The translations under genes and the position numbers were made by a program. From contig JAOARD010000040.1 in the NCBI GenBank assembly GCA_025210735.1, forward strand, positions 27,347-91,346: a DNA stretch of 64,000 nucleotides. The letters are read 5' to 3'. Shown here in pieces: positions 15,917 through 41,425 of the stretch. The notes under the pieces are model-generated. The model was given only the letters and a program-made list of their open reading frames with translations. It was not told the origin of the DNA and did not search any database. This DNA comes from Bacteroidales bacterium. Lineage in GTDB: Bacteria; Bacteroidota; Bacteroidia; Bacteroidales; UBA6680. Numbering within the stretch: the first letter of the stretch is position 1; each line of letters opens with the position of its first letter.

Positions 15917-16125
15917 TTGTCGTCTTTTTCATCTGTTTATAATTGTTTTTTCATTTGCCAGATGGAACTCCGCATAATAATCATCCTCGTGTGTGTGAAT
16001 GACCATTCTCATGCTTCGTTTCATCTGTTTATAATTTGTTTTCCAGTTGCCAGATAGAACTCGCATAATAATCATTCCTATATGCAAATGACTATTCTTT
16101 TGCTTTGTCTCATTTTTATCTGGTT
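15917..16125 (-). repeat. Two tandem copies (second degenerate) of the roughly 100-bp conserved start-codon-proximal element, copy A
   Basis: Reverse complement reads AAACAGATGAAACGAAGCATGAGAATGGTCATTCACACACACGAGGATGATTATTATGCGGAGTTCCATCTGGCAAATG...AAACAGATGAAA; about 85% identical to copies at 27.88, 33.50 and 41.32 kb. Confidence 0.8.
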
Positions 16126-16483
16126 GCAGAATGAAGGTTAGTATAAAAGTTGCATAAATGCATATTATAATCTACAACTTTTATATTTGGCCATATTTTC
16201 TGCTAAAAACCATATTTGTCTCATTTATCTAATTTACGATGAATATTAGCACTATATAATCTTGTACAATCTACGGCACTAAAATTTATCATACTATCCT
16301 TAATAAAACTTTCTAAATACAGAAATTCTGTATATATTTGTAGAAAGTATTGCGCAATATACAAAAAATACCCGTCATTCTAATAAATAAAGAATTATTG
16401 TAGTTGGTTATCTGCAATGTCGGGTACATTAATTAATGTAATATGTAACAAGCATTATACGCTGCTTCTGACTAAAGAGATAG

Positions 16484-16777
16484 TTGATTTTGCCGATTGC
16501 ATATAACAAAAGGGAAATTATAATATATGTAAAAATTAACTGTATGGCTTATTATCCAAAACCTGAACATCCCCAGAAACAGGAAATTGAAAACCGTATA
16601 GTGTGTCTAAGACAACGAATTAATGAGTTAAGAGAGAGAGATTGCAACGAAGAGAATATCAGAGAGATATCACTATTATCTCATAAAGTAGAGGTTGCAC
16701 AAAACAGGTTAAACGGAACATTCGGAAGTTCCGTTACAGAAACATTTAAAGTAGAATATTTTAATATAAAGGACTGA
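16484..16777 (+). CDS. Hypothetical protein (tail-module accessory)
   Basis: ORF only; likely start at MAYYPKPEHP; coiled-coil-like middle. Confidence 0.3.
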   Translation: MILPIAYNKREIIIYVKINCMAYYPKPEHPQKQEIENRIVCLRQRINELRERDCNEENIREISLLSHKVEVAQNRLNGTFGSSVTETFKVEYFNIKD

Positions 16778-16783
16778 ATAATT

Positions 16784-17044
16784 ATGAAAAACAAAGAGTT
16801 AGTAACAAAAGCCCCAAATCATATACGCAGATATAAAGAGATTCAGTTAGTATCTACAGAGTTATTAAAGACTTACAGGTCAAATAAAGTGATAGAATTT
16901 ATTAATAATAATTACTTTATTGGCGAAGATCTGTTCTGGAAGATAATAGGAATGAACCTTAACGATATTGATTTTATAACAGAAGACTCAAGCTGTATAT
17001 ACAAATCTATATTTGATAAGAAACGACGTAAGATAGCGATTTAG
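16784..17044 (+). CDS. Hypothetical protein
   Basis: ORF followed by hairpin CCCTGCAATACTACATTGCAGGG plus T-run (17075-17108). Confidence 0.3.
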   Translation: MKNKELVTKAPNHIRRYKEIQLVSTELLKTYRSNKVIEFINNNYFIGEDLFWKIIGMNLNDIDFITEDSSCIYKSIFDKKRRKIAI

Positions 17045-17271
17045 TGAATCCTTATTCTGTACTCTTATAATAGTTATCCCTGCAATACTACATTGCAGGG
17101 ATTTTTTTATTATCTAAATACTGAAAACGTGTATTTAATACAGAATAATATTTCAAATATACTGATTTAAAACTGTATGGATACACAAAACCAAGACATG
17201 GTAATGCTTTTACTGTATTCTTTACAGGATAGAGTGTATGGCTGTTTACTGAATTTGTGTAGTCAGAGATA

Positions 17272-17748
17272 ATGTACCATCTTTGTAATGTCGAAAGGGA
17301 ACAACGAATAAACAACACGATTATGAGAATTGATATTTATACAGAAATTAAGGATATATTAGAATCGAGTAAAGAGTTTAGAACAGTAACTCTTTATAAA
17401 GATCAGTTTAACAGGTTACCACTTGATGCCTCTTTAGAGAGACCTGCAGTGTTAATTGACATAGCAAATGTGAACTGGAAAAGTTTGTCTAAAGGGGTTA
17501 GACATGGTGATATGGTAGTTGGTATCTATCTGATAGTTGGAGCAAACAACAATCTTAATAGTTCAATTACAGCAGAGAACGATACCGCTGCCATAAACCT
17601 TCTTGATAAAACAGGAGAGATACTTGATGGTTTTGTATTTAATAACGGATGCCGATTACAACGAGTATCAGATAAGGCAATAAAACATACATCATCGCTA
17701 AGCATATATAGAATTGAGTATACAATGCTTGTATCATTAGGAGAGTAA
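17272..17748 (+). CDS. Hypothetical tail-associated protein (possible tail completion/terminator); likely start MRIDIYTE at 17323
   Basis: Position immediately upstream of the sheath; size about 140 aa typical of tail terminator/completion proteins; no motif recognised. Confidence 0.3.
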   Translation: MYHLCNVEREQRINNTIMRIDIYTEIKDILESSKEFRTVTLYKDQFNRLPLDASLERPAVLIDIANVNWKSLSKGVRHGDMVVGIYLIVGANNNLNSSITAENDTAAINLLDKTGEILDGFVFNNGCRLQRVSDKAIKHTSSLSIYRIEYTMLVSLGE

Positions 17749-17753
17749 CAGAT

Positions 17754-18008
17754 ATGGATATTAAGTATTGGATCTTAACAGGTGTTGTATCGGTATTTTT
17801 TACTCTATCTATGCTATTTCTTAGAATATGGCTTAACAGAGTGCTGCGTAAGTTCGATAACCTTACCGATTCGGTAAACGATCTTAAAGCAAGTTTTATG
17901 CTGCAAAAACACGATTCTGTAGCAATAAGGGAGGAGATAAAACGGCACGATATCAGAATTAATAACCATGCCGACCGGATACGGGAATTAGAGATATTAA
18001 TAAAGTGA
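17754..18008 (+). CDS. Single-TM plus coiled-coil small protein (holin-like candidate)
   Basis: N-terminal TM WILTGVVSVFFTLSMLFLRIWL then charged coiled coil. Confidence 0.35.
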   Translation: MDIKYWILTGVVSVFFTLSMLFLRIWLNRVLRKFDNLTDSVNDLKASFMLQKHDSVAIREEIKRHDIRINNHADRIRELEILIK

Positions 18009-18034
18009 TAACCCAACTAAACATCTATGAATTA

Positions 18035-18211
18035 TGCTTGACAGAATTTTTAAAAATTGGAAGACTACGATATTTGGTTTATCGATGATAGCTTTTTGCT
18101 TTGTTTTAGTAGGAGCAGGTAAAGCCTCATTATCAGAGGTGGGAACATTTATACTGGGAGGCTTTGCCCTGTTCTTTACAAAAGACGGAACACCCGATAA
18201 CCAGAGTTAGA
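18035..18211 (+). CDS. 58-aa two-TM small membrane protein (holin-like candidate, below ORF-track cutoff)
   Basis: MLDRIFKNWKTTIFGLSMIAFCFVLVGAGKASLSEVGTFILGGFALFFTKDGTPDNQS read directly from sequence. Confidence 0.3.
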
Positions 18212-18316
18212 TTCAGATATCTGCAGTAGCGCGCTCATAAGTATGCAGATATAATCAGAGAGAATTAAAGTAATCTGTTGATACAGATGACATTTTGAAA
18301 CGAATTAATTATTCGT

Positions 18317-19558
18317 ATGGGATTGCTATACCCATATGAGACTATTTATAAATTAAAAATCAATTGTAAAATGGGTTTACCAAATGTTAAGATTAACATT
18401 ACTAACGGTGCATTAGGTACTGTTGATGCCAAAAACGGCGGTGTAGCAGCAATGATTCTGCGCGGAACAACAAAAGGTGGTGAGGATGTACAACCGGATC
18501 CGGTAAGTACACCAATTGTTCTAAACAGCTTAAATGATGCCGTAAAGAACAATATTACACCTGAGTACGATTCAGAAAGAGGAGTAAATGCATATCATCA
18601 TATTAAAGAGTTTTATGATGAGGCTGGCGAGGGTGCAAAGCTATGGGTAATGGTTGTTGATAAGTCGGTAGAGATGAATAATCTTGTGTCTGCACAACAC
18701 CCTGAGTTTGCAAAGAAACTTATTGATGCCGGACAAGGTGAGATCAGATTGTTAGGACTTACTGGTGCTGTAGTTGAGACTCCTACAATTACAAAGGGAC
18801 TTCAGACAGATGTTGCTAATGCAATAAATGGTGCACAAACATTTGTAGGAAACTATGTTGAGAAGATTGCTCCGTTTATCACAGTACTTGAGGGTAAGAA
18901 TTGGGATAAGTCAGCAACAGATATTGAGAATCTTCGTGAGGGTGATGATAACCGTGTTTCGGTTGCTCTATGTAGCTCAAAAACCGATGGTTCTGCATCA
19001 ATAGGTCTTGTACTTGGTCGTTTGGCTAAGGTTGAAGAGCAGACACGTATCAGCCGTGTTAAGGATGGTTCTCTGTCAATTAACAAGGCGTATTTCTCAA
19101 ACGGAGAGATTGTTGATAACGCAACAGCGGAGTCGTTACACGACAAGGGATATGTTGTAATGCGTACATTCCCAAGAACAAACGGATACTTCTTTGCAAG
19201 TGACTACACAGCAACAAAAGCATCTGACGATCTGAACAGAATCTCATTGGTTCGTACTATTGATAAGGCACTTATGATTGCTTACGATACATATATCAAC
19301 TCTGTTGATGATGAGATTGAGATGGATAGTAAGGGTCAGGTTCTTGCCTCTGTAGCAAAATCGCTTGAGACAGATATTGAGGACATGGTTCGTATTCAGA
19401 TGAACGGACAGATCAGCTCATTTGATGCATTTGTTGATCCTGCACAAAACATCATCAGCACCGGACAGCTAAGCGTTGTTTGTAAGATAGTTCCTAAGGG
19501 ATATCTAAATGAGATTGTTGTAGATCTTGGTTTCAGCAATCCGGCATTAAGTAACTAA
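18317..19558 (+). CDS. Contractile tail sheath protein (start possibly MGLPNVKI at 18371)
   Basis: About 400 aa, immediately followed by a 140-aa tube-like protein, frameshift chaperone and tape measure: canonical myovirus order sheath-tube-chaperone-TMP. Confidence 0.6.
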   Translation: MGLLYPYETIYKLKINCKMGLPNVKINITNGALGTVDAKNGGVAAMILRGTTKGGEDVQPDPVSTPIVLNSLNDAVKNNITPEYDSERGVNAYHHIKEFYDEAGEGAKLWVMVVDKSVEMNNLVSAQHPEFAKKLIDAGQGEIRLLGLTGAVVETPTITKGLQTDVANAINGAQTFVGNYVEKIAPFITVLEGKNWDKSATDIENLREGDDNRVSVALCSSKTDGSASIGLVLGRLAKVEEQTRISRVKDGSLSINKAYFSNGEIVDNATAESLHDKGYVVMRTFPRTNGYFFASDYTATKASDDLNRISLVRTIDKALMIAYDTYINSVDDEIEMDSKGQVLASVAKSLETDIEDMVRIQMNGQISSFDAFVDPAQNIISTGQLSVVCKIVPKGYLNEIVVDLGFSNPALSN

Positions 19559-19591
19559 TTGTAAGAACATAAAAAAAATTAAGTAAAGAAT

Positions 19592-20014
19592 ATGGCAGAG
19601 TTTAATAGCAGACAGTATCAGTTTTCAGACATTCAGGTAGTTATAAAAGGTAGAACTATCACTGGTTTGAGAGGAATTAAGTATAAGGTTTCTCAGGATA
19701 AAGAGGTTGTGTATGGAGCCGGTAACAAAGGTCAGTTTATTCAGAGAGGTAATATTTCATATGACGGAGAGATTTCGTTGTTGCAGAATGAGCTTCTTGC
19801 ACTTGAGCGTTATGCACGCGAAGAGGGCTTTGAAGGGCTACACGATCTTCAGTTAAACATAGTAGTGGCTTATGCTCCTGAAACAGGACTTCCGCTTACA
19901 ACAGATGTTATCAGAGGCGTTGAGTTTACATCAGTTGATACCGGTATGAGCCAGGGAGATAAGATGATGGAGGTAACACTTCCGTTTATCGCTCTTGATA
20001 TCAAAAAGGGTTAA
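19592..20014 (+). CDS. Tail tube protein
   Basis: 140 aa, beta-rich, follows sheath; attenuator hairpin after it. Confidence 0.6.
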   Translation: MAEFNSRQYQFSDIQVVIKGRTITGLRGIKYKVSQDKEVVYGAGNKGQFIQRGNISYDGEISLLQNELLALERYAREEGFEGLHDLQLNIVVAYAPETGLPLTTDVIRGVEFTSVDTGMSQGDKMMEVTLPFIALDIKKG

Positions 20015-20030
20015 TTATAAAGTAAAGCTG

Positions 20031-20060
20031 AAAAGGCTCTTAGCGGAGCCTTTTGCTTTC
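20031..20060 (+). terminator. Intrinsic terminator/attenuator between tube and chaperone genes
   Basis: AAAAGGCTCTTAGCGGAGCCTTTTGCTTTC. Confidence 0.5.
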
Positions 20061-20105
20061 TAAAACAGAGTCTTTAAAAGAGTTTCATAAAAAATAAACA
20101 ACAGT

Positions 20106-20411
20106 ATGAGTAAAGAGTATAAAGGGCAGTTATCTGCAGCAGAGATTGCCGAGTTAAAAGCAAAGCATAAAGATATTTTTCAGTATAAAGTTGATGGTAA
20201 AATCTGCTACCTGCGCGATGTTACTATTGATGATATAGACTATGCTCAGACAGTTAAGAAGAGTAATATAGGGTTTAAGATGATGATTATTGATTCTATA
20301 TGGCTTGCAGGATGTGAGGAGATAAGATCAAATAAACGATATAAACTGGGATTGTCATCATTTGTAAGTGACCTTATAGAGATTGAGGTAGGTGAGTTGG
20401 ACAGGCTTTAG
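20106..20411 (+). CDS. Tail assembly chaperone (gpE/G-like), probable -1 frameshift extension to 20566
   Basis: 101 aa between tube and tape measure; -1 frame is open from 20396 to a TAA at 20564-20566 and encodes ...ADTVVEKTDSIRQINAQLRYYFKIDPKGLSIYERAKLYNELIWIRKMERGK with no ATG of its own. Confidence 0.5.
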   Translation: MSKEYKGQLSAAEIAELKAKHKDIFQYKVDGKICYLRDVTIDDIDYAQTVKKSNIGFKMMIIDSIWLAGCEEIRSNKRYKLGLSSFVSDLIEIEVGELDRL

Positions 20412-20648
20412 CCGATACTGTTGTTGAGAAAACAGACAGTATTCGGCAGATAAACGCCCAGTTACGATACTACTTTAAGATAGATCCCAAAGGACTAAGT
20501 ATTTATGAGAGAGCAAAACTCTACAATGAGCTAATCTGGATCAGAAAGATGGAGAGAGGTAAATAACCTCTCTTCTTTAGCCCCTAAACTAAACAACTCT
20601 ACTAAAGCAAAGCTCTCAGACAATGTAAAAATTAAATCAATTTAAAAT

Positions 20649-23489
20649 ATGTCAGATAATTATGATAAGATACTGAAGGCTGTTGAAGGTACCAATAATA
20701 GTTTGCAGGTTATTATTGCCGACCTGGCAAAAATACCAAAAGGTTCAGATGATGCTGTACTTAAAACTTTAGGTGGTAACTGGATGCAGCTTTTGGGTGC
20801 TATAGAGAGCTATGGAGCCGATGTTGAAGATACAGAGAATGAGTTATCGGATATACCGGGCGAGTTTAAGAATATTTTAGATAAGAACAACAGAGAGTTA
20901 CGTACTATATACGATGAGTTTGTACGCGATATGTTTGATGTTCTGTATCGTATAAAAGACATACAGTCACAGAGCAGAACGTTACAGACAGGCAGAACAG
21001 AACCAGCAGATATCAGACTCCTGAATACTACATCCCCGTTAGATTCAGGAAACATGAGTAGTATAGCTCCGTTAATGTTATCACCTGCTAATAATAACGG
21101 TATTAGTAATCCTGAACTTATGTTGCCTCAGCCAAACAGAGGAACCTCAGGAGCTATGTTGCCGGTGGCAAATAGCAGAAGAAACGAAGATGTTAATTCA
21201 ATAATAGAGAATACACGTGGTACTCAGCTTATGTTACCACAATCAAGCAGAGCTATGCTTCCGGTACCTCACAGATCAACTGTTAATAGTAACAGACCTG
21301 TAGTAACACCGGGAGATAATATAGTACATACACCACAGATTATTATGTCTCCTTCAGCTAACAGAAGTGAGAGAAGAGATTTGTACTCTGTAATCAGGAA
21401 TATATCAAGACCTATAGATATAACACCTGTGAATAGTGGCTCCGATAGCAGAACAGGTAACAGATCTGGTATTAGCAGGGCATTTGGCGGAATGAGAAGA
21501 GGTGTAGGAAAAGCTTTTGGAGGAATAAAAGGTGGATTAGGAAAGGCTCTGGGTGGTATAGGAGGCGGAATGCTTAAGGCAAACCCCTATGTTATGGCTG
21601 CATCAAAGGTTGCAGGAGTAATGTACGATGCCGGTAAAGCTGTTGTAGATGCCACAATGAAGTACGATAAGTATAATGATACATTGCAACGTACCTTCAG
21701 AGATACAACAAAGGCTGGTAATGCAATGGATATGCTTAAGAACTTTGCTACCGATACACCTTTCCAGATTGATGAGCTTACAGGATCATTCAGTCAGCTT
21801 ACCAAGGATGGTGTTGGACCAACCAAAGCACAGATGAAAAGTCTGGGTAATGTAGCATCATATAATGGACTAAGCTTCTCTGATATGACAAAGGCTCTTG
21901 TAGCAGCAGAGTCGGGTAAGGTAGACAGTTTGAGTGCACTTGGTGTTAAAGCAAAGGTTAATGGCGATAAAATATCGGTTGTATTTAAAGGGCAGAAAAA
22001 GGAGATTGAGAATACGGCGGCTGGTATACGTAAATATGTAACAGAGCTTGGTAATATGCCGGGAGTTGCAGGAAGTATGGCTGCTGCAAATGATACTATT
22101 GGAGCATCTATCCAAAATCTTGGTGAATCATGGACAGGCATGTTGGCATCTATTGGCGATGGACGCATGGGACCTCTTCAGAGTGTTTTGGATGGGCTTG
22201 GTGATGGCCTTAACTCAATTGGCGAGTGGTTTGAGATACCTGTTAGTGACAAAATAATGGAGGAGAAGGCCGAGATAAATGGTCTTGTTAATGCCATTAT
22301 TGCACTTAATGAAGGTGATTCAATGAGATTAGATCTGCTTAATCAGTTACAGCAGAGATATCCGGATGTAATTGGTGCAATTGATCTTGAGAAATTATCG
22401 AACGAACAGCTTGCAGAGAGTCTTAAACGTGTTAATGGTGAGTATGAGCGAAAATATAATTCTCAGAAAGCTAATGAAGAGAGAGCAGAAGAGCAGGAGG
22501 AGATTGATGAGTTAAAGCAGGAGCTTTTGGAGGTGAATACAGCCAGGGGTATCAAAGCTCGTATGAGTCAATTAAATAATGAACTTTTCAAAAAAGCCGG
22601 AGGTAAATGGCAAGAGTATCAAACATCTATGTTTGGTTCTGGTAGTATGCATTACAACAGTAAGGTTATTGGAACTGTAGAGTTTGAGGAGTATCAGAAA
22701 CTTCAGGAACAGCTTGGAGATCTTGGATTTAAGTATAAGCTTGGTACTGTAAATTATGAAGAAAAGATAAAGAGTATTCAGGCAGAGATTAGTAAACATG
22801 AGAAGAAGCAAAAGGATATTACTAATGTAGAGCAGTTAGGAAGACGTTCCAGTGTTTTTGAAGATGCCAAAGATCTGGGAATTGATGTTACAGATGATAA
22901 GAATGGTAACTATGCCAGATTGTTCGGGCAAGACAAAGCTCTGTATGATAAGTTTGATAAGATAGTTAAAGAGGATTATAAAGATCTTGACGATACTGAA
23001 TTTAAATTTCTGGAGGAGGTTCTTTCAGGAAAACTGGTAAAGAGTCAGAAGAGTAAGAAGGAGGTTCTTGATAAATCATCTAAAGTGGATGCCAGTGTAT
23101 TTAAAGGTAATAAGAAAGTTAAGGAAGAATATATAAACCTTAAGAAGCAGAGTGTTTATGAACTTGATGATAAAGAGACTAAGCGCCTTAAAGAGATACT
23201 TAGCATGCCTTCTGCTCAGAAAAGTTTTAATTCTAAAAAAGGCAAAGCCGGAAATGAGAATTCATCATTAACAGGATCAGAAACATCAAGAGTAAATAAC
23301 GGACCACTTGAGGTTGCATCGGGAGGATCACGTGCTACCCATATAAATACCACCGTGCAGAAACTTGTTGAGAGTATTGTGATAAATGCCCAAGGTAAAG
23401 ATATGGGCTATATAAAAGAGAATATACAGGCAACAGTTGAGGAGGCTCTGCTGCGTGCTCTGAACTCGGCTAACGCTATAGCAAATTAA
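20649..23489 (+). CDS. Tail tape measure protein
   Basis: 946 aa; Gly-rich GKAFGGIKGGLGKALGGIGGG segment; long coiled-coil, Lys/Glu-rich C-terminal half; position after the chaperone. Confidence 0.7.
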   Translation: MSDNYDKILKAVEGTNNSLQVIIADLAKIPKGSDDAVLKTLGGNWMQLLGAIESYGADVEDTENELSDIPGEFKNILDKNNRELRTIYDEFVRDMFDVLYRIKDIQSQSRTLQTGRTEPADIRLLNTTSPLDSGNMSSIAPLMLSPANNNGISNPELMLPQPNRGTSGAMLPVANSRRNEDVNSIIENTRGTQLMLPQSSRAMLPVPHRSTVNSNRPVVTPGDNIVHTPQIIMSPSANRSERRDLYSVIRNISRPIDITPVNSGSDSRTGNRSGISRAFGGMRRGVGKAFGGIKGGLGKALGGIGGGMLKANPYVMAASKVAGVMYDAGKAVVDATMKYDKYNDTLQRTFRDTTKAGNAMDMLKNFATDTPFQIDELTGSFSQLTKDGVGPTKAQMKSLGNVASYNGLSFSDMTKALVAAESGKVDSLSALGVKAKVNGDKISVVFKGQKKEIENTAAGIRKYVTELGNMPGVAGSMAAANDTIGASIQNLGESWTGMLASIGDGRMGPLQSVLDGLGDGLNSIGEWFEIPVSDKIMEEKAEINGLVNAIIALNEGDSMRLDLLNQLQQRYPDVIGAIDLEKLSNEQLAESLKRVNGEYERKYNSQKANEERAEEQEEIDELKQELLEVNTARGIKARMSQLNNELFKKAGGKWQEYQTSMFGSGSMHYNSKVIGTVEFEEYQKLQEQLGDLGFKYKLGTVNYEEKIKSIQAEISKHEKKQKDITNVEQLGRRSSVFEDAKDLGIDVTDDKNGNYARLFGQDKALYDKFDKIVKEDYKDLDDTEFKFLEEVLSGKLVKSQKSKKEVLDKSSKVDASVFKGNKKVKEEYINLKKQSVYELDDKETKRLKEILSMPSAQKSFNSKKGKAGNENSSLTGSETSRVNNGPLEVASGGSRATHINTTVQKLVESIVINAQGKDMGYIKENIQATVEEALLRALNSANAIAN

Positions 23490-23502
23490 AAACTAAACAG
23501 TT

Positions 23503-24150: not shown

Positions 24151-24156
24151 TAGCCT

Positions 24157-25143: not shown

Positions 25144-25186
25144 CCCCTTTGGTCAGATAATTTATTAACCAAAAACTATATAATCT

Positions 25187-25927: not shown

Positions 25928-25931
25928 AGCA

Positions 25932-26490: not shown

Positions 26491-26491
26491 T

Positions 26492-27343
26492 ATGGAACAG
26501 TATAATACGTTGGCAGCCTGCAGAGAGGCTGTAGAGAGCAAATCGCGCGAGAGATTTGGTGACAAACTGGATACTTCCGGAGCTTCAGAATGGGGATTAT
26601 GGATAGGAATTCTCTCATACTGTATCTGGATATTTAACAATATTCTAAATCTCTTTAAGAGAGATGTTGAGGCCAGTATACAGAGTAAAAAGATGTTTCT
26701 TTTACCATGGTACGCAAAGATGATAAAGGAGTTTCAGCTTGGCGACAGTCTTGTTACAGATAAGAGTGGGATTACTTCATATCCGGTTGTTGATGAGAAG
26801 AAGAGAATAATTAAACATGTAACTATTAGAGAGACAACAGAGGGATTATCTATTAAGGTTGCAAAAGAGATTGATGATAACGGGGTTAAAAAACTGGCAC
26901 CTTTAAACAGGGCTACAGATGAGTTTATACAGTTTAAACGTTATGTAGAGAATCGTAAAGCTCCGGGAACAAAGATAGAGTATATATCGTTAGGTCCTGA
27001 TGTGGTATACCTTGATACAGATATCTATTACGACTCACTCTATATCCCAATGTCTGGCGACAATGCAGTTGATTCGGTTAAAGGTAATGTGCTCAGAACA
27101 CTTGAGGAGTATAAAGAGAGCCTTGGTTACGAGGGGATTATTTATGTGTCTGATCTTGAGAAGAGACTATCTGAGACCGATGGTGTAGTTACAGCAAAGA
27201 TAAACCTTATAAAAGGAACTCAGGGTAGTGCAGTTACCACGTTTGATGTTGCCTATATTCTTAAATCAGGTTATTTCAACTTTGATGACAGTGTAGTTGT
27301 AAACATGCATAATAGTGCTGATTTTCTTAAGACTATAAACTAA
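26492..27343 (+). CDS. Baseplate J-like protein
   Basis: 283 aa, synteny W-J-I-H. Confidence 0.45.
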   Translation: MEQYNTLAACREAVESKSRERFGDKLDTSGASEWGLWIGILSYCIWIFNNILNLFKRDVEASIQSKKMFLLPWYAKMIKEFQLGDSLVTDKSGITSYPVVDEKKRIIKHVTIRETTEGLSIKVAKEIDDNGVKKLAPLNRATDEFIQFKRYVENRKAPGTKIEYISLGPDVVYLDTDIYYDSLYIPMSGDNAVDSVKGNVLRTLEEYKESLGYEGIIYVSDLEKRLSETDGVVTAKINLIKGTQGSAVTTFDVAYILKSGYFNFDDSVVVNMHNSADFLKTIN

Positions 27344-27383
27344 TATAGGTTTAATATGACCATTAAAAAACAAATTTAGACAT

Positions 27384-27866
27384 ATGAATCTTAATTTAGA
27401 TATAAAAAGCTTTGTAAACAGGATGATTCCTGTTCACAAAAGACAGCCTGTGCGTCTGAAAATACTTGGATTCTTTGCCGATCTGATGTCTGAGATATAT
27501 AACGATTATGCAAGCTACAGGGATGAGTTGTTATATCGGTTTAACGTTACAGGAGAGGTGCTTAGTCTTAAGAATTTTCTTAACCGGCAGATCCCTGAGG
27601 CAGGTGGCAGAATAGATATTATACACGGAAAAGAGAATGGGTTCTCAATTCAGCTAAGATCTGAGCAGGGGTATAATTATCTGCAACTAAGCAATAGCGA
27701 TGGTAACCAGTTTGTAGAGGTAGCTTTGCGCGGAGAGATATTAGATCCTTTTACAGAGTCGTTTGCAGTAGAGGTGCCTGAGCATGTAAATACCGATAAA
27801 GTGCTTGCAATTGTTAACGAGTACCGACTTGCAGGTAAGAGCTTTAAAATAATCAATAAACAGTAA
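27384..27866 (+). CDS. Tail protein gpI-like
   Basis: 160 aa preceding the fibre gene; upstream AAACAAATTTAGACATATGA start context shared with lanB. Confidence 0.4.
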   Translation: MNLNLDIKSFVNRMIPVHKRQPVRLKILGFFADLMSEIYNDYASYRDELLYRFNVTGEVLSLKNFLNRQIPEAGGRIDIIHGKENGFSIQLRSEQGYNYLQLSNSDGNQFVEVALRGEILDPFTESFAVEVPEHVNTDKVLAIVNEYRLAGKSFKIINKQ

Positions 27867-27874
27867 CAAAACTA

Positions 27875-27975
27875 AATACATATGAAACGAAGCATGAGAA
27901 AGAATTTTCACACACACGAGAATGATTATTATGCGAAGTTCCATCTGACCATTAAAAAGAAAAAATAAACAGATG
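27875..27975 (+). repeat. Conserved start-codon-proximal element, copy B
   Basis: ACATATGAAACGAAGCATGAGAAAGAATTTTCACACACACGAGAATGATTATTATGCGAAGTTCCATCTGACC...AAACAGATGAAAAG; ends in the fibre gene ATG. Confidence 0.8.
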
Positions 27976-30009
27976 AAAAGACAAGTACAGGCAGAGGGTG
28001 TACGTCAGTGGTATGGCGATGATCTGATATCTCTGCAGAGTGAGCCGATGAAGGTTCTTGACAAATTTTTTGAGGATTATGGTAATATGATAATCTCAGG
28101 ATGTAAGGTTAAAGGTAATAGTATAACCCCTGGTTTAGTAGGATTAACTTATGAAAACGAAGGTAGTTCTATATATAAGGTTTGTGAATTCAGAGGACTT
28201 GACTCTGTAGAGTCATGGCCGGTATTTCTGTCGTTATCAAAAGAGGTTATAGATGGTAAATATGCCTCAGAGCAGACAAAACCAATTATTGAGCAGTATA
28301 TTGCTAAACCCGATTATCTTGAACCGGATGGTATCTACATAAGTATTAATAGTAACGGACAGGTATTTGCATATGAAAGCGATGATGCAATAGAGACCAG
28401 AATGGTTACATTACGTGAAATAAATGACTGGAATAGATCCAGAGCAGATGCAGTATCAGATGTAAGAGGAGGAGTTCCTTCTAATGTAAATACACTTAAG
28501 CAGCTTTATAACTGGGTGCAGGCTAACTATCTGCAGAAGACATTAAGAAGTAATAGCCATACATCAACATCAACAGAGAGTGTTGCAACTAGTAAGGCAG
28601 TTAACGATTCAAAAACAAGCGTTATATCAACAATCAGAGATGGTGCTGCTCCGGCATATAATACATTTAAAAAACTGTATGATTATGTTGTTGGCAACTA
28701 TATTCTTAACTCAAGAGTTAATGACAGTCACTCGTCTGCATCAACAAATAATGTAGCATCAAGTAAAGCAGTATTGGATGCAAAAACAAATGTGTTGTCA
28801 ACAATACGTGGTGGTATATCAACAACGTATGATACCCTTAAGAAGTTATATGATTATGTTGTTAATAACTATATATCTAATGGCAGAGTAAGTAACCTGC
28901 ATACATCTCAGTCAACAACAAATGTTGCTTCAAGTAAGGCTGTTTATGATGCAAAGAGTAGTGTTCTGTCTACAATTCGTGGAGGAGTATCTTCGTCATA
29001 CGATACCCTTAAGGAGTTATATGATTATGTTGTTAATAATTATGTTTCTAATGGTAGGGTAAGTAATCTACATACATCAGACTCAACAACAAATGTGGCC
29101 TCAAGTAAAGCTGTAAAAGATGCAAAAAGTAGTGCTGTTTCAATAGTAGTTGGAGGAGAGGCAACATATAATACATTAAAGAAACTGTATAATTATGTTG
29201 TAGGTAACTATGTTTCAAAATCAAGTATTAATAGTAGCCATACCTCAACCTCAACCTCAACTGTAGCATCAAGTAAAGCTGTTTATGATGCAAAGAATAG
29301 TGTACTGTCTACAATTCGTGGAGGAGTATCTTCGTCATATGATACCCTTAAGGAGTTATTGGATTATGTGACTGGTAATTATGTCTCTAATTCAAGGGTG
29401 AGTGATAATCATACTTCAAGTTCTAAAACAGATGTAGCGTCAAGTAAGGCTGTAAAAGATGCAAAGAGCAGTGTTATTTCAACATTACTTGGAGGAGAAT
29501 CTACATATAATACGTTAAAGAAAATGTATAATTATATTGTAGGTAATTATATCGCAAAATCTAAAATTAGTAATAGTTATACATCATCTTCTACAACCAA
29601 TGTTGCTTCAAGTAGAGCTGTAAGAGATAGTGTAAGTAGTGTAAAGAGAGAGCTTGGATTTAATATTATTGACTCATGGAGTAAATCTCATAATTCACAA
29701 TCTGGATACGAGATACAGCTAACTGCTGTTAAGTATGTAAATGGAATGGTTCGTTTATGTATTAAATCAGATGATAGTCCTGGGCAGGTTACAGATCCTG
29801 GATATTTACTTGAACTACCAGAGATGTACAGACCTGTTGAGGATGTAACATTTGTTGGGTCAGGCTCTATTAGTGGTAGAGATATTAATCTGACAAAATA
29901 TAAATTATTAAAATCAGGTAGATTGGAAAATGGAACAATTACGCATGCTACTGTAATGTATCAGGCAGTTATGACAATGAGTGAGTTTGATGATTATTAT
30001 GTTTGTTAA
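27973..30009 (+). CDS. Tail fibre protein with about 6.5 tandem ~58-aa repeats
   Basis: 678 aa; repeats of ...HTSxSTTNVASSKAV(Y/K)DAKSSVLSTIRGGVSSSYDTLK(E/K)LYDYVVNNYVSNGRVSN between roughly 28540 and 29650. Confidence 0.7.
   Translation: MKRQVQAEGVRQWYGDDLISLQSEPMKVLDKFFEDYGNMIISGCKVKGNSITPGLVGLTYENEGSSIYKVCEFRGLDSVESWPVFLSLSKEVIDGKYASEQTKPIIEQYIAKPDYLEPDGIYISINSNGQVFAYESDDAIETRMVTLREINDWNRSRADAVSDVRGGVPSNVNTLKQLYNWVQANYLQKTLRSNSHTSTSTESVATSKAVNDSKTSVISTIRDGAAPAYNTFKKLYDYVVGNYILNSRVNDSHSSASTNNVASSKAVLDAKTNVLSTIRGGISTTYDTLKKLYDYVVNNYISNGRVSNLHTSQSTTNVASSKAVYDAKSSVLSTIRGGVSSSYDTLKELYDYVVNNYVSNGRVSNLHTSDSTTNVASSKAVKDAKSSAVSIVVGGEATYNTLKKLYNYVVGNYVSKSSINSSHTSTSTSTVASSKAVYDAKNSVLSTIRGGVSSSYDTLKELLDYVTGNYVSNSRVSDNHTSSSKTDVASSKAVKDAKSSVISTLLGGESTYNTLKKMYNYIVGNYIAKSKISNSYTSSSTTNVASSRAVRDSVSSVKRELGFNIIDSWSKSHNSQSGYEIQLTAVKYVNGMVRLCIKSDDSPGQVTDPGYLLELPEMYRPVEDVTFVGSGSISGRDINLTKYKLLKSGRLENGTITHATVMYQAVMTMSEFDDYYVC
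28540..29650 (+). repeat. Intragenic tandem repeat array (about 175-183 bp unit) inside the tail fibre gene
   Basis: Six full and one partial protein-level repeats; units 3 and 5 nearly identical (AVYDAK(S/N)SVLSTIRGGVSSSYDTLKEL). Confidence 0.7.
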
Positions 30010-30350: not shown

Positions 30351-30361
30351 AACAATTTATT

Positions 30362-30703: not shown

Positions 30704-30708
30704 TATTT

Positions 30709-31268: not shown

Positions 31269-31283
31269 ATTGTAAGATTTAAC

Positions 31284-33499: not shown

Positions 33500-33593
33500 T
33501 TGAAATGAAGCATGAGAATAGTCATTCACACACACGGAGATGATTATAAATGCGAGTTCCATCTGGCAAATAAAAAACAATTATAATCAGATG
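33500..33593 (+). repeat. Conserved start-codon-proximal element, copy C
   Basis: TGAAATGAAGCATGAGAATAGTCATTCACACACACGGAGATGATTATAAATGCGAGTTCCATCTGGCAAATAAAAAACAATTATAATCAGATG. Confidence 0.8.
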
Positions 33594-34088
33594 AAAACAG
33601 TACAGGCATTGCTACTAGTGTATTTTGTTATAAGCGTAGGTAACCTATACGCTAAACCCAATAAAAATTATTGTGACTCAATAGATGTAAACAATGACAC
33701 GATAATTGATTTTGTTATTGAAAACAGGTTACAAACAACAATGGATTTGGGATCTAAACCAATAACTATTGTTTCAATTCGTCCATTAAATAGTAATATG
33801 TTACTGTATAAACCGTATGTAGGATACCTGTTTCTTGGTAGAGGCGATACTATAACAAAATCTGACAGAAAAGAGTATGTCTGGACAAAATACAGAGCAG
33901 ATTTACTAAATGGTTACAATAATAATTGGAAGGTAATAGGAGAGTGTAAAGAGTTATGCTATATCGGAATAAAGATCTATGTAAGAGAAGAGTGTAATAT
34001 TGGTTGGTTAATATTAGATATTGATCAGGGCAACATAGCAGTTTCTGAAATGAAGTTGTTAACTGAAGATATTGTTGTAATAGAGTAG
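33591..34088 (+). CDS. Secreted hypothetical protein (signal peptide; start revised to MKTVQALLL)
   Basis: Signal peptide MKTVQALLLVYFVISVGNLYA; the ATG at 33591 coincides with the end of element copy C, as in the other copies. Confidence 0.5.
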   Translation: MKTVQALLLVYFVISVGNLYAKPNKNYCDSIDVNNDTIIDFVIENRLQTTMDLGSKPITIVSIRPLNSNMLLYKPYVGYLFLGRGDTITKSDRKEYVWTKYRADLLNGYNNNWKVIGECKELCYIGIKIYVREECNIGWLILDIDQGNIAVSEMKLLTEDIVVIE

Positions 34089-38082: not shown

Positions 38083-38143
38083 TGATATAAGCGTATGCCG
38101 AAAAGCTATAATAGAGTAGGCGGTTAATATAAATTGAAAAGTT

Positions 38144-38305: not shown

Positions 38306-38373
38306 ACTTAATCTAAACTAGCGTAAGCCGAAAAGCTATAACAGAGTAGGCGACACCAACAAATATACAGATT

Positions 38374-38592
38374 ATGAGAAAGTTAAAATTGACACTTAAA
38401 AAAGAGATTATTTCTGATCTTGAGTCAAAAGAGGTTAAAGGAGGAAAACCTTTAGATACTGGTAACTGTGTAACACAGCAAGTAGCTTGTGTTACAAGAC
38501 AGAATGTTTACAGTTGTATAGGTTGTTTACCTACAGGAGACTGCGAAACAAAGGTGCCTGTTTGCTTCACAATAGATGATTGTGAGTCATAA
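38374..38592 (+). CDS. lanA: Lanthipeptide precursor LanA-2
   Basis: Leader MRKLKLTLKKEIISDLESKEVKGG; core with 7 Cys. Confidence 0.8.
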   Translation: MRKLKLTLKKEIISDLESKEVKGGKPLDTGNCVTQQVACVTRQNVYSCIGCLPTGDCETKVPVCFTIDDCES

Positions 38593-38796
38593 ACAACAGA
38601 TGTTATTAGAAAATTAAAGTTTTCTGAGGGAGAGTTTTTTAATCTAATGGAGAATATAAAACTCTCTCCAATACTTTATAAAAGCTATTAGAACTTCACT
38701 ATAAGATAAGAATATATTATTGAGTGTTAGTATACAAAAAAATAGCGGTGACCGAAAAGCTATAATAGAGTAGGAAAAAATTAAAAAACCAAAATT

Positions 38797-38997
38797 ATGC
38801 GAAAACTAAAATTATCTTTAAAGAAAGAGGTTATCTCTGATCTTGAATCAGTAAGAGGTGGTAATATGAATAACAGAACATGGACTATTCCGGGAACATG
38901 TTGTATTAATCCTGATCCATCAAGAAGAGACGATACTTGCGAGACCAGACACTGTCAGTCTGTAGAGTGTGAGTATACAGAGATTAATTGCATGTAA
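38797..38997 (+). CDS. lanA: Lanthipeptide precursor LanA-3 (TIPGTCC subfamily)
   Basis: Leader ...SDLESVRGG; core NRTWTIPGTCCINPDPSRRDDTCETRHCQSVECEYTEINCM. Confidence 0.8.
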   Translation: MRKLKLSLKKEVISDLESVRGGNMNNRTWTIPGTCCINPDPSRRDDTCETRHCQSVECEYTEINCM

Positions 38998-39015
38998 TTT
39001 AACATATAGTGCAAG

Positions 39016-39219
39016 ATGAGAAAATTAAAATTAACACTAAAGAAAGAGATTATCTCTGACCTTGAAGCAAAAGAGATAAAGGGTGGTGCAAATACATTAG
39101 ATCAGTGCCAGACTCAAGGAGCGTCTTGTTTGACAAATTGCGAAATTGATACTTGTATTGATTGCTTTATGACTAATGGTTGTGAATCAGTTCCTTGTAC
39201 AAAGGCTGATTGTCTGTAA
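39016..39219 (+). CDS. lanA: Lanthipeptide precursor LanA-4
   Basis: Leader ...EAKEIKGG; core ANTLDQCQTQGASCLTNCEIDTCIDCFMTNGCESVPCTKADCL. Confidence 0.8.
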   Translation: MRKLKLTLKKEIISDLEAKEIKGGANTLDQCQTQGASCLTNCEIDTCIDCFMTNGCESVPCTKADCL

Positions 39220-39241
39220 CTAATAATTAAAAACCAAAATT

Positions 39242-39445
39242 ATGCGAAAATTAAAATTAACACTAAAGAAAGAGATTATCTCTGATCTTGAAGCAAAAGA
39301 GATAAAGGGTGGTGCAAATACATTAGATCAGTGCCAGACTCAAGGAGCGTCTTGTTTGACAAATTGCGAAATTGATACTTGTATTGATTGCCTTATGACT
39401 AATGGTTGTGAATCAGTTTCTTGTACAAAAGCTGATTGTCTGTAA
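39242..39445 (+). CDS. lanA: Lanthipeptide precursor LanA-5 (near-identical duplicate of LanA-4, 2 aa differences)
   Basis: Core differs only F/L and P/S from LanA-4; flanking DNA also duplicated. Confidence 0.8.
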   Translation: MRKLKLTLKKEIISDLEAKEIKGGANTLDQCQTQGASCLTNCEIDTCIDCLMTNGCESVSCTKADCL

Positions 39446-39467
39446 CTAATAATTAAAAACCAAAATT

Positions 39468-39650
39468 ATGCGAAAACTAAAACTGTCGTTAAAGAAAGAG
39501 GTTATCTCTGACCTTGAAGCAAAAGAAATAAAAGGTGGTAATGGATCAAAATTTGATTGTACGCCAAGAACTGCAATATCACTTTGTATAAGATGTGTTT
39601 ATACAGAGGGTGAGGAGTATACATGTGAAATGGTTTGCGGACTGGAATAA
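39468..39650 (+). CDS. lanA: Lanthipeptide precursor LanA-6
   Basis: Leader conserved; core NGSKFDCTPRTAISLCIRCVYTEGEEYTCEMVCGLE. Confidence 0.75.
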   Translation: MRKLKLSLKKEVISDLEAKEIKGGNGSKFDCTPRTAISLCIRCVYTEGEEYTCEMVCGLE

Positions 39651-39663
39651 AGAGTGAATCATT

Positions 39664-39852
39664 ATGCGAAAATTAAAACTATCGTTAAAAAAAGAGGTCA
39701 TCTCTGACCTTGAAGCAAAAGAGGTAAAAGGCGGTGCAACTATAGATTGCTATTCTGCAAATAGATATTGTAGACCACGTACCAGAGAAATCTCTATTTG
39801 TGTTGATTGTTCGCCAACTGAACAAAGGACTTGCAGAATTTGTGAGGATTAA
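39664..39852 (+). CDS. lanA: Lanthipeptide precursor LanA-7
   Basis: Leader conserved; core ATIDCYSANRYCRPRTREISICVDCSPTEQRTCRICED. Confidence 0.75.
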   Translation: MRKLKLSLKKEVISDLEAKEVKGGATIDCYSANRYCRPRTREISICVDCSPTEQRTCRICED

Positions 39853-39890
39853 TGTAATTATAATAATTACTAATTAACTACTTAATTATT

Positions 39891-40064
39891 ATGAGAAAAC
39901 TGAAACTATCCTTAAAAAAGGATATCATATCAGACCTTGAAAACAAAGAGGTAAAGGGCGGAGTAATTTATTCTGAAAATATGAATTGCAGACCTAAGAC
40001 ATATGAACTGTCGCGTTGTTTAATGTGTGATAAAACGCAAGAGTTAACATGTATGGCTTGTTAA
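39891..40064 (+). CDS. lanA: Lanthipeptide precursor LanA-8 (57 aa, below ORF-track cutoff)
   Basis: MRKLKLSLKKDIISDLENKEVKGGVIYSENMNCRPKTYELSRCLMCDKTQELTCMAC read from sequence. Confidence 0.7.
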   Translation: MRKLKLSLKKDIISDLENKEVKGGVIYSENMNCRPKTYELSRCLMCDKTQELTCMAC

Positions 40065-40104
40065 TAATTTCTTGTTTGACATTTCATATCTAATAATAAG
40101 CCTT

Positions 40105-40290
40105 AGGATAAAACTTAAACTATCTCTTTAAAACGAGATTATATAATATTTTGAGGCAAATAATACCGTAGTTGGAGGTATTAATTCACATAGAACCTTA
40201 TCAATTCAGGCTATATTTTGTCGTGATATTGATAAATGTGAGACAGGTATTGTGATATCGATACTTGTTTACAAATATTTTTTGTTAATA
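40105..40290 (+). pseudogene. Decayed lanthipeptide precursor copy
   Basis: ATAAAACTTAAACTATCTCTTTAAAACGAGATTATA aligns to ATGAGAAAACTGAAACTATCCTTAAAAAAGGATATCATA with start lost and in-frame stops; downstream remnant still encodes CRDIDKCETGIV. Confidence 0.5.
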
Positions 40291-40306
40291 ACTAATAACC
40301 ATAAAG

Positions 40307-40525
40307 ATGAGAAAATTAAAACTATCATTAAAAAAAGAGATCATCTCTGATCTAGAATCAAAAGAGGTAAAAGGAGGTATGAATACTATTGATTTGTGTA
40401 AGACAGAACCACAATCTTATTGGACAAATTGTGAAGTTAATACTTGTGTTAATTGCCTTTTGACTAAAAATTGTGAGACAACACCTTTAGATTCATGTGA
40501 ATGTCTTCCGACATATATGTGTTAA
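40307..40525 (+). CDS. lanA: Lanthipeptide precursor LanA-9
   Basis: Leader ...ESKEVKGG; core MNTIDLCKTEPQSYWTNCEVNTCVNCLLTKNCETTPLDSCECLPTYMC. Confidence 0.8.
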   Translation: MRKLKLSLKKEIISDLESKEVKGGMNTIDLCKTEPQSYWTNCEVNTCVNCLLTKNCETTPLDSCECLPTYMC

Positions 40526-40683
40526 ATATCGGAAATATGATTAATCAAATGGGAATATGTTTTTGAATGGCATTCCTATATCAGGAATATTATAAATGTA
40601 ATTCTGTTTGGCTGATGAATTTTCTAAAACTATACATGTGTATAGTTCTAACTATTACTAATAAACAATTAAAAATCAGAATT

Positions 40684-40872
40684 ATGAGAAAATTAAAATT
40701 AACATTAAAAAAAGAGATTATCTCTGATCTTGAGAATGTAACGGGTGGTATTAATCCTAACAGAACTGTAACAATTCCAGGTACTTGTTGTATCGTTGAA
40801 GAAACTAAGCATTTTCATAGTTGTGAGACTGATTGCAATACAGATACCTGTCATACAAAAATCTTCTGTTAA
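40684..40872 (+). CDS. lanA: Lanthipeptide precursor LanA-10 (TIPGTCC subfamily; start revised from 40567)
   Basis: MRKLKLTLKK begins at codon 40 of the listed ORF; the upstream extension is AT-rich spacer. Confidence 0.75.
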   Translation: MRKLKLTLKKEIISDLENVTGGINPNRTVTIPGTCCIVEETKHFHSCETDCNTDTCHTKIFC

Positions 40873-40893
40873 TAACTAAATAAGATAAGTAAG

Positions 40894-41088
40894 ATGAGAA
40901 AGTTAAAATTATCTTTAAAGAAAGAGGTTATATCTGATCTTGAGTCAGTAACTGGTGGTATTAATCCTTTAAAAACTAGGACAATTCCAGGAACATGTTG
41001 CTTAGATCCAGATCCATCAAGACAAGACGATACTTGTGAAACAAGATATTGCGAAACACAAGCTTGTCATACAAGACAATTTTGTTAA
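40894..41088 (+). CDS. lanA: Lanthipeptide precursor LanA-11 (TIPGTCC subfamily)
   Basis: Leader ...SDLESVTGG; core INPLKTRTIPGTCCLDPDPSRQDDTCETRYCETQACHTRQFC. Confidence 0.8.
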   Translation: MRKLKLSLKKEVISDLESVTGGINPLKTRTIPGTCCLDPDPSRQDDTCETRYCETQACHTRQFC

Positions 41089-41315
41089 TTCAACATGTTT
41101 AACAAATAGAACGTATAGTGAGTGATTTCAATTTTACGATTACTGTTTGCTTGTTTTATATGGATAATTGAGTAAAATTGAATACCTCAAAATATTAAGA
41201 GGGCGTTTAACACGCCCTTTTTAACTTCTAAAACAAGAATATGAGGCGAGCATATACAAGATTTATCTCAAACATAGAGATGAAAAAGTTATGTGAGCTC
41301 ATATAGCAACTGAAA

Positions 41316-41425
41316 AACAAATTTAGATATATGAAACGAAGCATGAGTAAAGGATTTTCTCACACACGAGGATGGCTAAGAATGCGAGTTCCATATGACC
41401 TTTAAGAAACAAATTTAGACATATG
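41316..41425 (+). repeat. Conserved start-codon-proximal element, copy D
   Basis: AAACAAATTTAGATATATGAAACGAAGCATGAGTAAAGGATTTTCTCACACACGAGGATGGCTAAGAATGCGAGTTCCATATGACC...AAACAAATTTAGACATATG; flanked by a 20-bp direct repeat that includes the lanB ATG. Confidence 0.8.

Follow-up and report, generated by a model that had tools for sequence, protein, structure and literature searches.

A start-codon-carrying repeat of Bacteroidales that probably spreads as a mobile 5′-leader cassette

A repeat of ~97 bases, dispersed and multi-copy in an uncultured Marinifilaceae-like lineage of Bacteroidales, ends in an ATG that in most assessable copies opens the gene downstream. We consider it probable that this repeat is a non-autonomous, proliferating mobile 5′-leader cassette that integrates behind (A)TGAA and restores the start codon. 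Its units measure ~92–98 nt and share one order, in which a start box (ATGAAAC) is followed by a hairpin, an arm with the sequence GTTCCAT(C/A)TG, an A-rich tail and a terminal CA(G/T)ATGAA. A preliminary description of this DNA had suggested a MITE-like element with a translation-initiation region as its target or its cargo. The copy number, the presence/absence and replacement between strains and the element's own A-rich leader with ATGAA bear this out in substance, but the element is not a classical MITE.

In the 64-kb window, by which we mean the whole stretch of DNA analysed, a search with covariance model (CM) R1 with filters off yielded seven matches: four intact units, two degenerate tandem units and one 3′ remnant. 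Five copies of a ~100-bp element had been described before; the CM found all of them (A, B1, B2, C and D) and added two, the degenerate unit D-up and the remnant. The four full copies score 103–108 bits (E ~1e-17) and are 74–90% identical in pairwise comparison, and the core CACACACGRGRATG occurs four times against 0.5 expected. An eighth copy lies just beyond the window edge.

Copy A (27882..27978, plus strand; 104 bits) follows the tail module and is fused to the ATG at 27973 of a gene for 678 aa (ORF 27973–30009). Its old start box, ATGAAAC (27882–27888, plus strand), begins 15 nt past the stop codon of the gene at 27384–27866, the position expected of an original start, and its arm GTTCCATCTG (27938..27947, plus strand) is complementary both to this 5′ box and to the element's own terminal CAGATGAAA. 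The gene at 27384–27866 is itself fused at its start to the 3′ remnant (27335..27389, plus strand; 39 bits), which retains the arm, tail and ATG of a type II unit and is also conserved in the metagenome-assembled genome (MAG) UBA6680. Copy C (33500..33596, plus strand; 107.5 bits) has the variant 5′ box TTGAAAT and is fused to the ATG at 33591, where a predicted secreted protein of 165 aa begins; in related samples, short-read assemblies are interrupted within this copy. Copy D (41331..41428, plus strand; 102.6 bits) is a type II unit, with the arm CCATATG and the terminal sequence CATATGAAA, fused to the ATG at 41423 of lanB (741-aa ORF; Pfam Lant_dehydr_N, E = 2.6e-144). In tandem before it stands D-up (41241..41330, plus strand), a degenerate full unit recognized by a CM score of 32 bits together with alignment and directly preceded by a terminator-like hairpin. 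On the minus strand, copy B2 (15927..16024; 103 bits) has the degenerate copy B1 (16025..16113; 45 bits, 63–76% identity to intact copies) in tandem upstream. The terminal ATG of B2 (15932–15930) is out of frame with the XRE gene and opens an 11-codon ORF, the XRE start lying 16 nt downstream at 15916. Fusion of every copy to the downstream ATG had been claimed; it holds for A, C and D and fails for B2. As to the genes named at the time, Pfam confirms lanB, the XRE HTH protein and a Band_7 protein, while 'tail fibre' is a name given by position. Gene calls in the window vary (165 versus 182 aa, 724 versus 741 aa) according to how the element is read.

The termini of the unit, as set by polymorphisms at B2 and site A, are CGAAGC... 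and ...CAGATGAAA. The left border abuts (A)TGAA(A), and the right end consists of the A-rich tail followed by the unit's own ATGAA(A). At the left border TGAA is nearly invariant, and the left flanks vary from site to site. Most copies have (A)TGAA(A) on both sides, with the two boxes differing at several sites, such as L018, L027, L030 and copy C. Element-specific rather than host sequence makes up the tail and the three bases preceding the terminal ATG, and the right box belongs to the element. Direct repeats of 10–20 bp had been reported at both ends; at D and B2 the long ones turn out to be tails of the tandem units that stand upstream, and what is repeated at A and C is (A)TGAAA only. The terminal inverted repeats reported with them are not upheld, as the inverted repeats are subterminal on one side, with the right arm 25–30 nt inside the right border. 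An integron attC site was considered and rejected: of the core pair RYYYAAC/GTTRRRY only the AAC/GTT triplets fit (ATGAAAC/GTTCCAT), and the copies are dispersed, each with the same tail and ATG, unlike a cassette array with its integrase. Rfam returned no match at the gathering threshold and only chance-level ones at E up to 10, and inspection of the consensus by eye showed neither the −33 TTTG nor the −7 TAnnTTTG promoter motif of Bacteroidetes in either orientation.

Beyond the window, UBA6680, the genome of a close relative, holds ~40 copies, many of them at contig ends. A pattern scan located 33 genome loci, mostly in this MAG and at least 15 at contig ends, and the covariance model produced 56 matches on them. 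Of 34 copies that could be assessed, 23 have a terminal ATG from which an ORF of at least 60 aa begins (null rate 0.32, P = 2e-5), and seven have no long ORF after them. Besides those in the window, the carrier genes include endonuclease IV, a 679-aa ORF that we take from its N-terminus to be a putative peptidase, an MBL-fold protein and many secreted proteins in relatives. They are functionally unrelated, and the earlier suggestion of a leader coordinating tailocin and lanthipeptide expression is contradicted by this range of genes behind the same element. At least eight UBA6680 contig ends carry an identical palindromic version followed by the recurrent sequence ATGAAAGATAGGTT; no repeat longer than 250 bp is common to the loci. 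Diverged copies are also seen in other Bacteroidales.

Comparison of closely related strains shows that the element turns over between them. At site A, in front of the putative tail-fibre gene, the flanks are 98.3 and 98.5% identical in another strain and the element only 70%; the replaced stretch extends through the terminal ATGAA(A/G), so that the same site is held by a different family member. The B2 site in UBA6680 likewise contains a different variant inside 98%-identical flanks. In two assemblies (L047 and L048) B2 is exactly absent, with the junction ...CAGATGAAA^AAGACG, although 18-nt direct repeats are present and slippage could delete one unit without transposition. None of the strains examined yielded an unoccupied site with fully native flanks, and all of them are filled at A, C and D. 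Further copies across the genome and presence/absence polymorphism, on which the preliminary description had staked its MITE-like reading, were thus both looked for and found.

Folding and covariation across copies had also been proposed there. According to the folding predictions, the hairpin is significant only as sense-strand RNA, with a mean z of −3.0 and 21 of 29 copies below −2, against a mean of −1.7 for antisense RNA; under DNA parameters the sense strand averages −0.43 and the antisense strand −0.97, with only 4 to 5 of the 29 copies below −2. Variation in the inner stem is limited to AU↔GU and CG↔UG changes. Covariation links the arm base to the one preceding the terminal ATG (AU 13, CG 12, UA 1, other 3), a result reached by none of 500 shuffles, although these counts represent few independent events because one lineage and a handful of subfamilies account for most copies. 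In the distant copy L008 the helix is kept despite two further changes (CAUUCG:CGAAUG). In the diverged copies L006, L031, L030b and L063 the arm no longer pairs with the terminal box. The arm helix has only 6–9 bp and spans an A-rich loop of 22–25 nt. In equilibrium folding the new AUG is unpaired with a mean probability of 0.24 and the old AUG with one of 0.33, and the new AUG is mostly paired in the predicted bistable folds of A, C and D. The new AUG is not consistently exposed, and the element might therefore leave expression unchanged, repress it or act on it like a switch. Since the conserved structure behaves as sense-strand RNA, a common post-transcriptional effect on all carrier genes is possible.

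Under the mobile-cassette reading, insertion would take place immediately 3′ of (A)TGAA, typically where this motif forms the opening five or six bases of a gene beginning Met-Lys. Because the unit ends in the same (A)TGAA motif as its target, the gene start would be rebuilt, and insertions at gene starts would therefore be tolerated, while those at internal ATGAA motifs would be purged by selection. The carrier gene would stay intact and gain a new structured leader along with the element's start codon. The unit would be transcribed within the mRNA leader, where its sense strand may fold into a long hairpin and the 3′ arm, GUUCCAU(C/A)UG, could pair with either start box, old or new; a common structured, possibly bistable leader would thus be conferred on the carrier genes. 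More tentatively, the element might be a new type of guide-directed mobile DNA, or an RNA-mediated element, whose arm pairs with ATGAAAC, homes to the first codons of a gene, swaps the leader and rebuilds the start. The pairing of the arm with the terminal box fits an internal guide for a cleavage site, and an RNA helix would account for it too.

As to what might move the element, the window contains no strong match to a transposase, in agreement with the preliminary description, and neither a transposase, a Y1/HUH protein nor a reverse transcriptase was found in the window or the retrieved loci. Motif scans for a Y1 (HUH) gene in these sequences were negative, and no parent IS with matching ends was found in them. 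Our leading guess, which we hold with low confidence, is a trans-acting enzyme of the IS200/IS605 or RAYT type guided by the pairing of arm and start box. Pairing between guide and cleavage site has been described for IS608 and REP elements, and a Y1 subclass particular to Bacteroidetes (2.6) is bordered by atypical hairpins of which further copies occur at other places in the genome (PMC6006769). The present element resembles REP/REPIN-RAYT and small IS200/IS605-derived elements (PATEs) in its lack of terminal inverted repeats, its hairpin architecture and its high copy number. REP-RAYT and IS200/IS605 systems insert beside a short conserved motif, and the borders of the present element are compatible with insertion after (A)TGAA; as in IS608 and REP, an internal sequence is complementary to the element's end. 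It differs from these systems in having a single hairpin instead of one at each end, in a proposed cleavage point at the foot of the stem and in the lack of a detectable Y1 gene in the window and retrieved loci; moreover, REPs usually lie at 3′ ends or between genes, whereas this element is fused to start codons. As single-stranded DNA the hairpin is no more stable than shuffled sequence, and an IS200/IS605-type mechanism is disfavoured because of this weakness.

Among other explanations, we regard as rather unlikely a host cis-regulatory leader, kept for the common post-transcriptional control of a gene set and spread by recombination only secondarily, in which the arm would sequester the real start codon unless an upstream decoy box captured it. 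The sense-strand structure with its wobble-type stem variation, the covariation of the arm with the region of the real start codon and the bistable fold predicted to pair the new AUG in A, C and D would all suit such a leader, for which there is precedent in repeats with a ribosome-binding site and ATG that control a regulon (PMC3184786). Under the mobile-cassette reading, too, the element's nearest known counterparts are the dispersed ~100–150 bp repeats Neisseria REP2 (the contact-regulated element, CREN) and Borrelia IR-A/IR-B: they lack terminal inverted repeats, have internal stem-loops and lie directly upstream of unrelated ORFs, to which they contribute the ribosome-binding region and the ATG used (PMC3184786). 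Here too the repeat supplies the initiation region and ATG of unrelated ORFs. REP2, however, belongs to a different phylum, the likeness drawn here being one of architecture, and it has a promoter and a Shine–Dalgarno site, whereas the present leader is an A-rich tail without a recognizable Bacteroidetes promoter motif. Nor are there reports for REP2 of a start box duplicated on the 5′ side or of an arm that can pair with either box, and strain-level turnover is documented for the present element. RNA thermometers and translational riboswitch platforms similarly place a helix over the AUG and an upstream competitor for the same arm, but they are confined to single loci or regulons and are not mobile, and no ligand-binding fold or Rfam match was found here. 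What speaks against a host regulatory leader is the functional disparity of the carrier genes, the near-identical copies at contig ends, which indicate recent bursts, the 70%-identical variants at one site in 98%-identical strains, the decayed tandem copies upstream of intact ones, the loss of arm–box pairing in four diverged copies and the negative promoter and Rfam searches.

A classical DDE-type MITE, moved through terminal inverted repeats by a related IS with a 4–6 bp target duplication, (A)TGAA(A), appears improbable. Short direct repeats do flank the units, an imperfect inverted repeat and a high copy number are present, and the ATGAAAGATAGGTT that follows the palindromic version could be the start of an IS gene; yet no inverted repeat is formed by the termini CGAAGC... 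and ...AAACAG, the right arm being set in from its end, the flanking boxes differ at several loci, the tail and the bases before the ATG belong to the element rather than the host, and neither a long repeat shared among the loci nor a transposase was found in the window and retrieved loci. Bacterial MITEs such as Correia, ERIC, RUP and Nezha are similarly small, non-coding, multi-copy, co-transcribed with their neighbours, able to fold as RNA and variably present between strains, but unlike the present element they have terminal inverted repeats and true target duplications, insert in either orientation and supply no start codon downstream. That the ORF from the 5′ ATGAAAC (MKRSMR..HTH..DDY..) is a functional small coding gene or leader peptide, translationally coupled to the downstream gene, is very hard to credit: type I copies do have a 24–31-codon ORF that begins at the 5′ ATG and either ends shortly before the real ATG or overlaps it, but the frame is not conserved, as type II copies stop after 15 codons and the ATGAAACGAGCATGA copies (L003, L008, L016 and L025) after four, copy D is frameshifted and copy C is without the 5′ ATG.

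Repeats that carry start codons are already known from REP2 and Borrelia, and how such repeats spread is a long-standing question. The present family offers a testable model of that spread, in which the start box is copied at the 5′ border and rebuilt by the 3′ end, with an internal arm complementary to both. In practical terms, the element is a source of breaks in short-read assemblies and of misled gene calling. If the guide-directed reading were true, a single bistable RNA switch that sequesters the start codon would be common to dozens of unrelated genes, and there would be a start-codon-specific insertion mechanism without a described transposase family. Translation initiation in Bacteroidetes does not rely on Shine–Dalgarno pairing and is sensitive to leader structure, and therefore a mobile leader of this kind could rewire the expression of many genes at once.

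Window copies of the repeat, aligned with one another, define a unit of ~97 nt. It opens with a 5' box (ATGAAAC), followed by GAAGCATGAG, a variable inner stem, a CA-rich loop (CACACACACGAG), ATGATTAT..ATGCGAG, the arm GTTCCAT(C/A)TG, an A-rich tail of 22–25 nt and, at the terminus, CA(G/T)ATGAA(A). With filters off, the whole window was searched using a covariance model derived from 21 copies. Four matches scored above 100 bits: copies C (33500–33596, forward strand, 107.5 bits), A (27882–27978, forward, 104.4 bits), B2 (15927–16024, reverse, 103.2 bits) and D (41331–41428, forward, 102.6 bits). Identity between the intact window copies is 74–90%. Two degenerate copies were also detected, B1 (16025–16113, reverse, 45 bits) and D-up, in tandem before D (41241–41330, forward, 32 bits), as was a 3' remnant at gene 27384 (27335–27389, forward, 39 bits); the best remaining match in the window had E > 0.4. 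All seven lie inside 26 kb (15927–41428) covering the phage-tail-like and lanthipeptide clusters, the other 38 kb being without copies, and an eighth, ~90–190 nt upstream of the window start, is fused to an MBL-fold gene. The window is contained in JGI metagenome contig Ga0400167_130512, and its host was assigned to Bacteroidales, with a Bacteroidales-type small SRP RNA found and a G+C of 34.6%.

The preliminary description had every unit stop at the ATG of the downstream gene. This holds for A, C and D, whose terminal ATG is the first codon of a long ORF, but not for B2, which had been read as fused to the XRE start: its ATG lies 16 nt upstream of the start of the XRE ORF and begins a frame of 11 codons. 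The inverted repeat was confirmed, although not as a terminal feature: the tail and ATG box come after the right arm. The long direct repeats reported at D and B2 are present, but they are explained by the older tandem copies, D-up and B1, whose tails they represent. Among the gene labels, lanB, the XRE HTH and the Band_7 proteins were confirmed, whereas 'tail fibre' is positional only; a DUF2586 protein and a tape-measure protein were also confirmed. No transposase had been reported, and no strong transposase family was detected among 55 window ORFs. Gene callers disagree near copy C (33540–34088), where the secreted protein is 165 or 182 aa and the longer call begins inside the element; for lanB (41423–43648) the calls are 741 and 724 aa, although the sequence is otherwise the same. 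A leader-peptide or coding reading of the unit was rejected because the frame from the 5' ATG is not conserved among copies: the ORF is broken in many of them, by stops after 4 or 15 codons or by frameshifts, and one copy has no ATG. The in-frame translation of the leader, MIINASSIWQIKNNYKQ, had no match in a protein search.

The repeats are spread genome-wide and have been active recently. When one genome per species was scanned with a degenerate pattern, 33 loci emerged, the majority from the MAG 'Bacteroidales bacterium UBA6680', a close relative whose contig DKJY01000139 is 92–98% identical to window positions 15956–31882. Within these loci the covariance model made 56 matches, which supplies the additional copies on which the initial suggestion of a mobile element had been staked. 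Copies also occur in Marinifilaceae McD1.32, on a contig of the same study that was binned as Vallitalea, and in Proteiniphilum and Bacteroidales WOFB09. At least 15 UBA6680 matches sit at contig ends, the signature of a high-copy repeat, and short-read assemblies of samples with the window organism break inside copies C and B2. The terminal ATG starts an ORF of 60–1185 aa in 23 of 34 assessable copies, against a background rate of 0.32 for ATGAAA sites generally (P = 2e-5). The downstream genes are unrelated and include endonuclease IV, LanB, an MBL-fold protein and many signal-peptide proteins; one carrier is a 679-aa ORF, taken as a peptidase from its N-terminus.

Presence/absence polymorphism, also named at the outset as a check, was found at B2, whose unit is exactly missing from two assemblies (L047 and L048). 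There, the B1 tail runs directly into ...AAACAGATGAAA^AAGACGACAAATGAATCAG, while in the window and three other contigs CGAAGC...CAGATGAAA occupies the ^ position. Because the empty alleles share their SNP haplotype with a filled allele, B2 is at least as likely to have been lost, through precise excision or slippage between 18-nt repeats, as to have been gained. UBA6680 carries a different variant at B2 between flanks that are 98% identical. A 184-kb contig from a different sample can be compared at site A: over 600 nt its flanks match those of the window at 98.3% and 98.5%, yet the element between them is only 70% identical to copy A, with loop, arm and tail all different. This divergence reaches through the terminal ATGAA(A/G), so the terminal start box is part of the element. 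The decayed copy is the upstream one in both window tandem pairs, which is consistent with insertion of a new unit at the terminal ATGAA of a resident one. The 5' ATGAAA of copy A lies 15 nt past the stop codon of the preceding gene, where the original start of the gene would be expected. Searches for empty sites through homologues, using the 160-aa protein and the XRE protein, matched only the queries themselves.

The loci around the copies vary as well. Compared with window ~15366–15439, some strains (among L045, L047, L048 and L049) have an extra ~1.9 kb, holding three or four small ORFs without Pfam matches, which separates the XRE and short-chain dehydrogenase genes that are neighbours in the window. 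On contigs from other metagenomes, one labelled coral (L051–L053), an XRE protein of 158 aa identical to that of the window (15440–16031) is preceded by a near-identical B2 unit and lies in a different neighbourhood, with HU-DNA_bdg/DUF4469 genes. For the gene after copy A (27973–30009), the window call is 678 aa long, against 327 aa in L061 and at least 793 aa in L062; the N-terminus is shared, so this presumed tail-fibre protein varies in its C-terminal part. Ahead of lanB (38374–41088) lie about 10 paralogous small ORFs (60–101 aa), whose number and order vary between strains (L055–L060). The Rfam DUF805b RNA motif has three gathering-threshold matches (38088–38122, 38318–38352 and 38742–38776), each ~25 nt upstream of a small ORF starting MRKLKL... 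within an array of 60–72-aa ORFs that separates the LanC-like gene from lanB. The small ORFs are likely lanthipeptide precursors, and the precursor genes may share the motif as a cis-element.

All copies share one common hairpin, formed by the 5' box with the arm, GCAU with AUGC, the inner stem and the CA-rich loop. Either box, the 5' one or the terminal one carried by the element, can pair with the arm, and among 29 distinct copies the variable base of the arm covaries with the base preceding the terminal ATG (AU in 13, CG in 12, UA in one and unpaired in three), a result reached by none of 500 shuffles. Pairing of the arm with the 5' flank was no better than chance. The 3' helix is retained in the distant copy L008 despite two further changes, and the helix is lost in several diverged copies; inner-stem variation is limited to AU<->GU and CG<->UG changes. 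The hairpin beats dinucleotide shuffles only as sense-strand RNA, with a mean z of -3.0 and 21 of 29 copies below -2, compared with -1.7 and 12 of 29 for the antisense strand; in 23 of 29 copies the sense strand folds more stably than the antisense. Under DNA parameters the values were -0.4 (4 of 29) for sense and -1.0 (5 of 29) for antisense, and a single-stranded DNA hairpin was rejected as not significant. In predicted equilibrium folding the two start boxes compete for the arm and neither is consistently exposed, which gives no support to a model in which the old start is hidden and the new one exposed; this model was rejected.

The element matches no Rfam family, and BLAST against annotated plasmids and annotated phages gave no match to it. 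No HUH/Y1 motifs were detected in the window and the collected locus DNA, and no long repeat common to the loci was found. A metagenome scan for an autonomous partner through the recurrent ATGAAAGATAGGTT junction returned chance matches only, and viral scans were empty but for one contig from the window's own metagenome. An integron attC site was rejected, the AAC/GTT likeness being merely superficial, and the element falls outside the definition of a classical MITE. At least eight UBA6680 contigs have an identical end, with a perfect 26–27 bp inverted repeat with a 35-nt loop, a tail and then ATGAAAGATAGGTT (L001, L004, L007, L012, L015, L018, L020 and L032). The loop is derived from the element, and the other side is the reverse-strand tail and ATG of a different gene in each. 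As DNA, this palindrome forms a very stable hairpin (-38.9 kcal/mol, z = -11.8). The palindromes prompted the idea of an invertible promoter switch, which was set aside given the very short loop and no promoter motif seen; it is further weakened in that the palindrome form may partly reflect assembly through palindromes. They may represent a candidate end of an autonomous element or, alternatively, flank a single-copy enzyme gene that was reached through mis-extension in the assembly. A variant unit with the tail GGCAAATGAAAAAGTGGGCTAAACAAGGATGAACAGAG occurs at four UBA6680 contig starts (L019, L022, L024 and L031), inserted in reverse-oriented copies just past their arm (CCATCTGGCA|) and yielding inverted pairs that stand tail to tail, 35 nt apart; L007 has this variant at a non-element site.

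Taken together, the data fit a non-autonomous mobile leader cassette. Such a cassette would land directly 3' of (A)TGAA and bring a copy of (A)TGAA with its own leader ahead of that copy, so that insertions at Met-Lys gene starts would survive, and the inserted element would subsequently be constrained as part of the mRNA. The complementarity of arm and boxes could define the ends during movement, by analogy with IS200/IS605 and REP elements, in which a guide pairs with the cleavage site (PMC6006769); alternatively, it could control translation. Our confidence in an IS200/IS605-type mechanism is low because the single-stranded DNA fold is weak and no Y1 gene was found in the DNA examined. Among known systems, Neisseria REP2 and Borrelia IR-A/IR-B come closest: these are repeats with an internal stem-loop that give promoter, ribosome-binding site and ATG to unrelated ORFs, and whose origin and mode of spread were described as open questions (PMC3184786). 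Unlike these, the present family is found in another phylum, has a duplicated start box and an arm complementary to both boxes, and shows documented strain-level turnover. The repeat family is thus real and unusual, a fresh variant among start-carrying repeats, for which an effect on genes and the proposed mode of spread are plausible.
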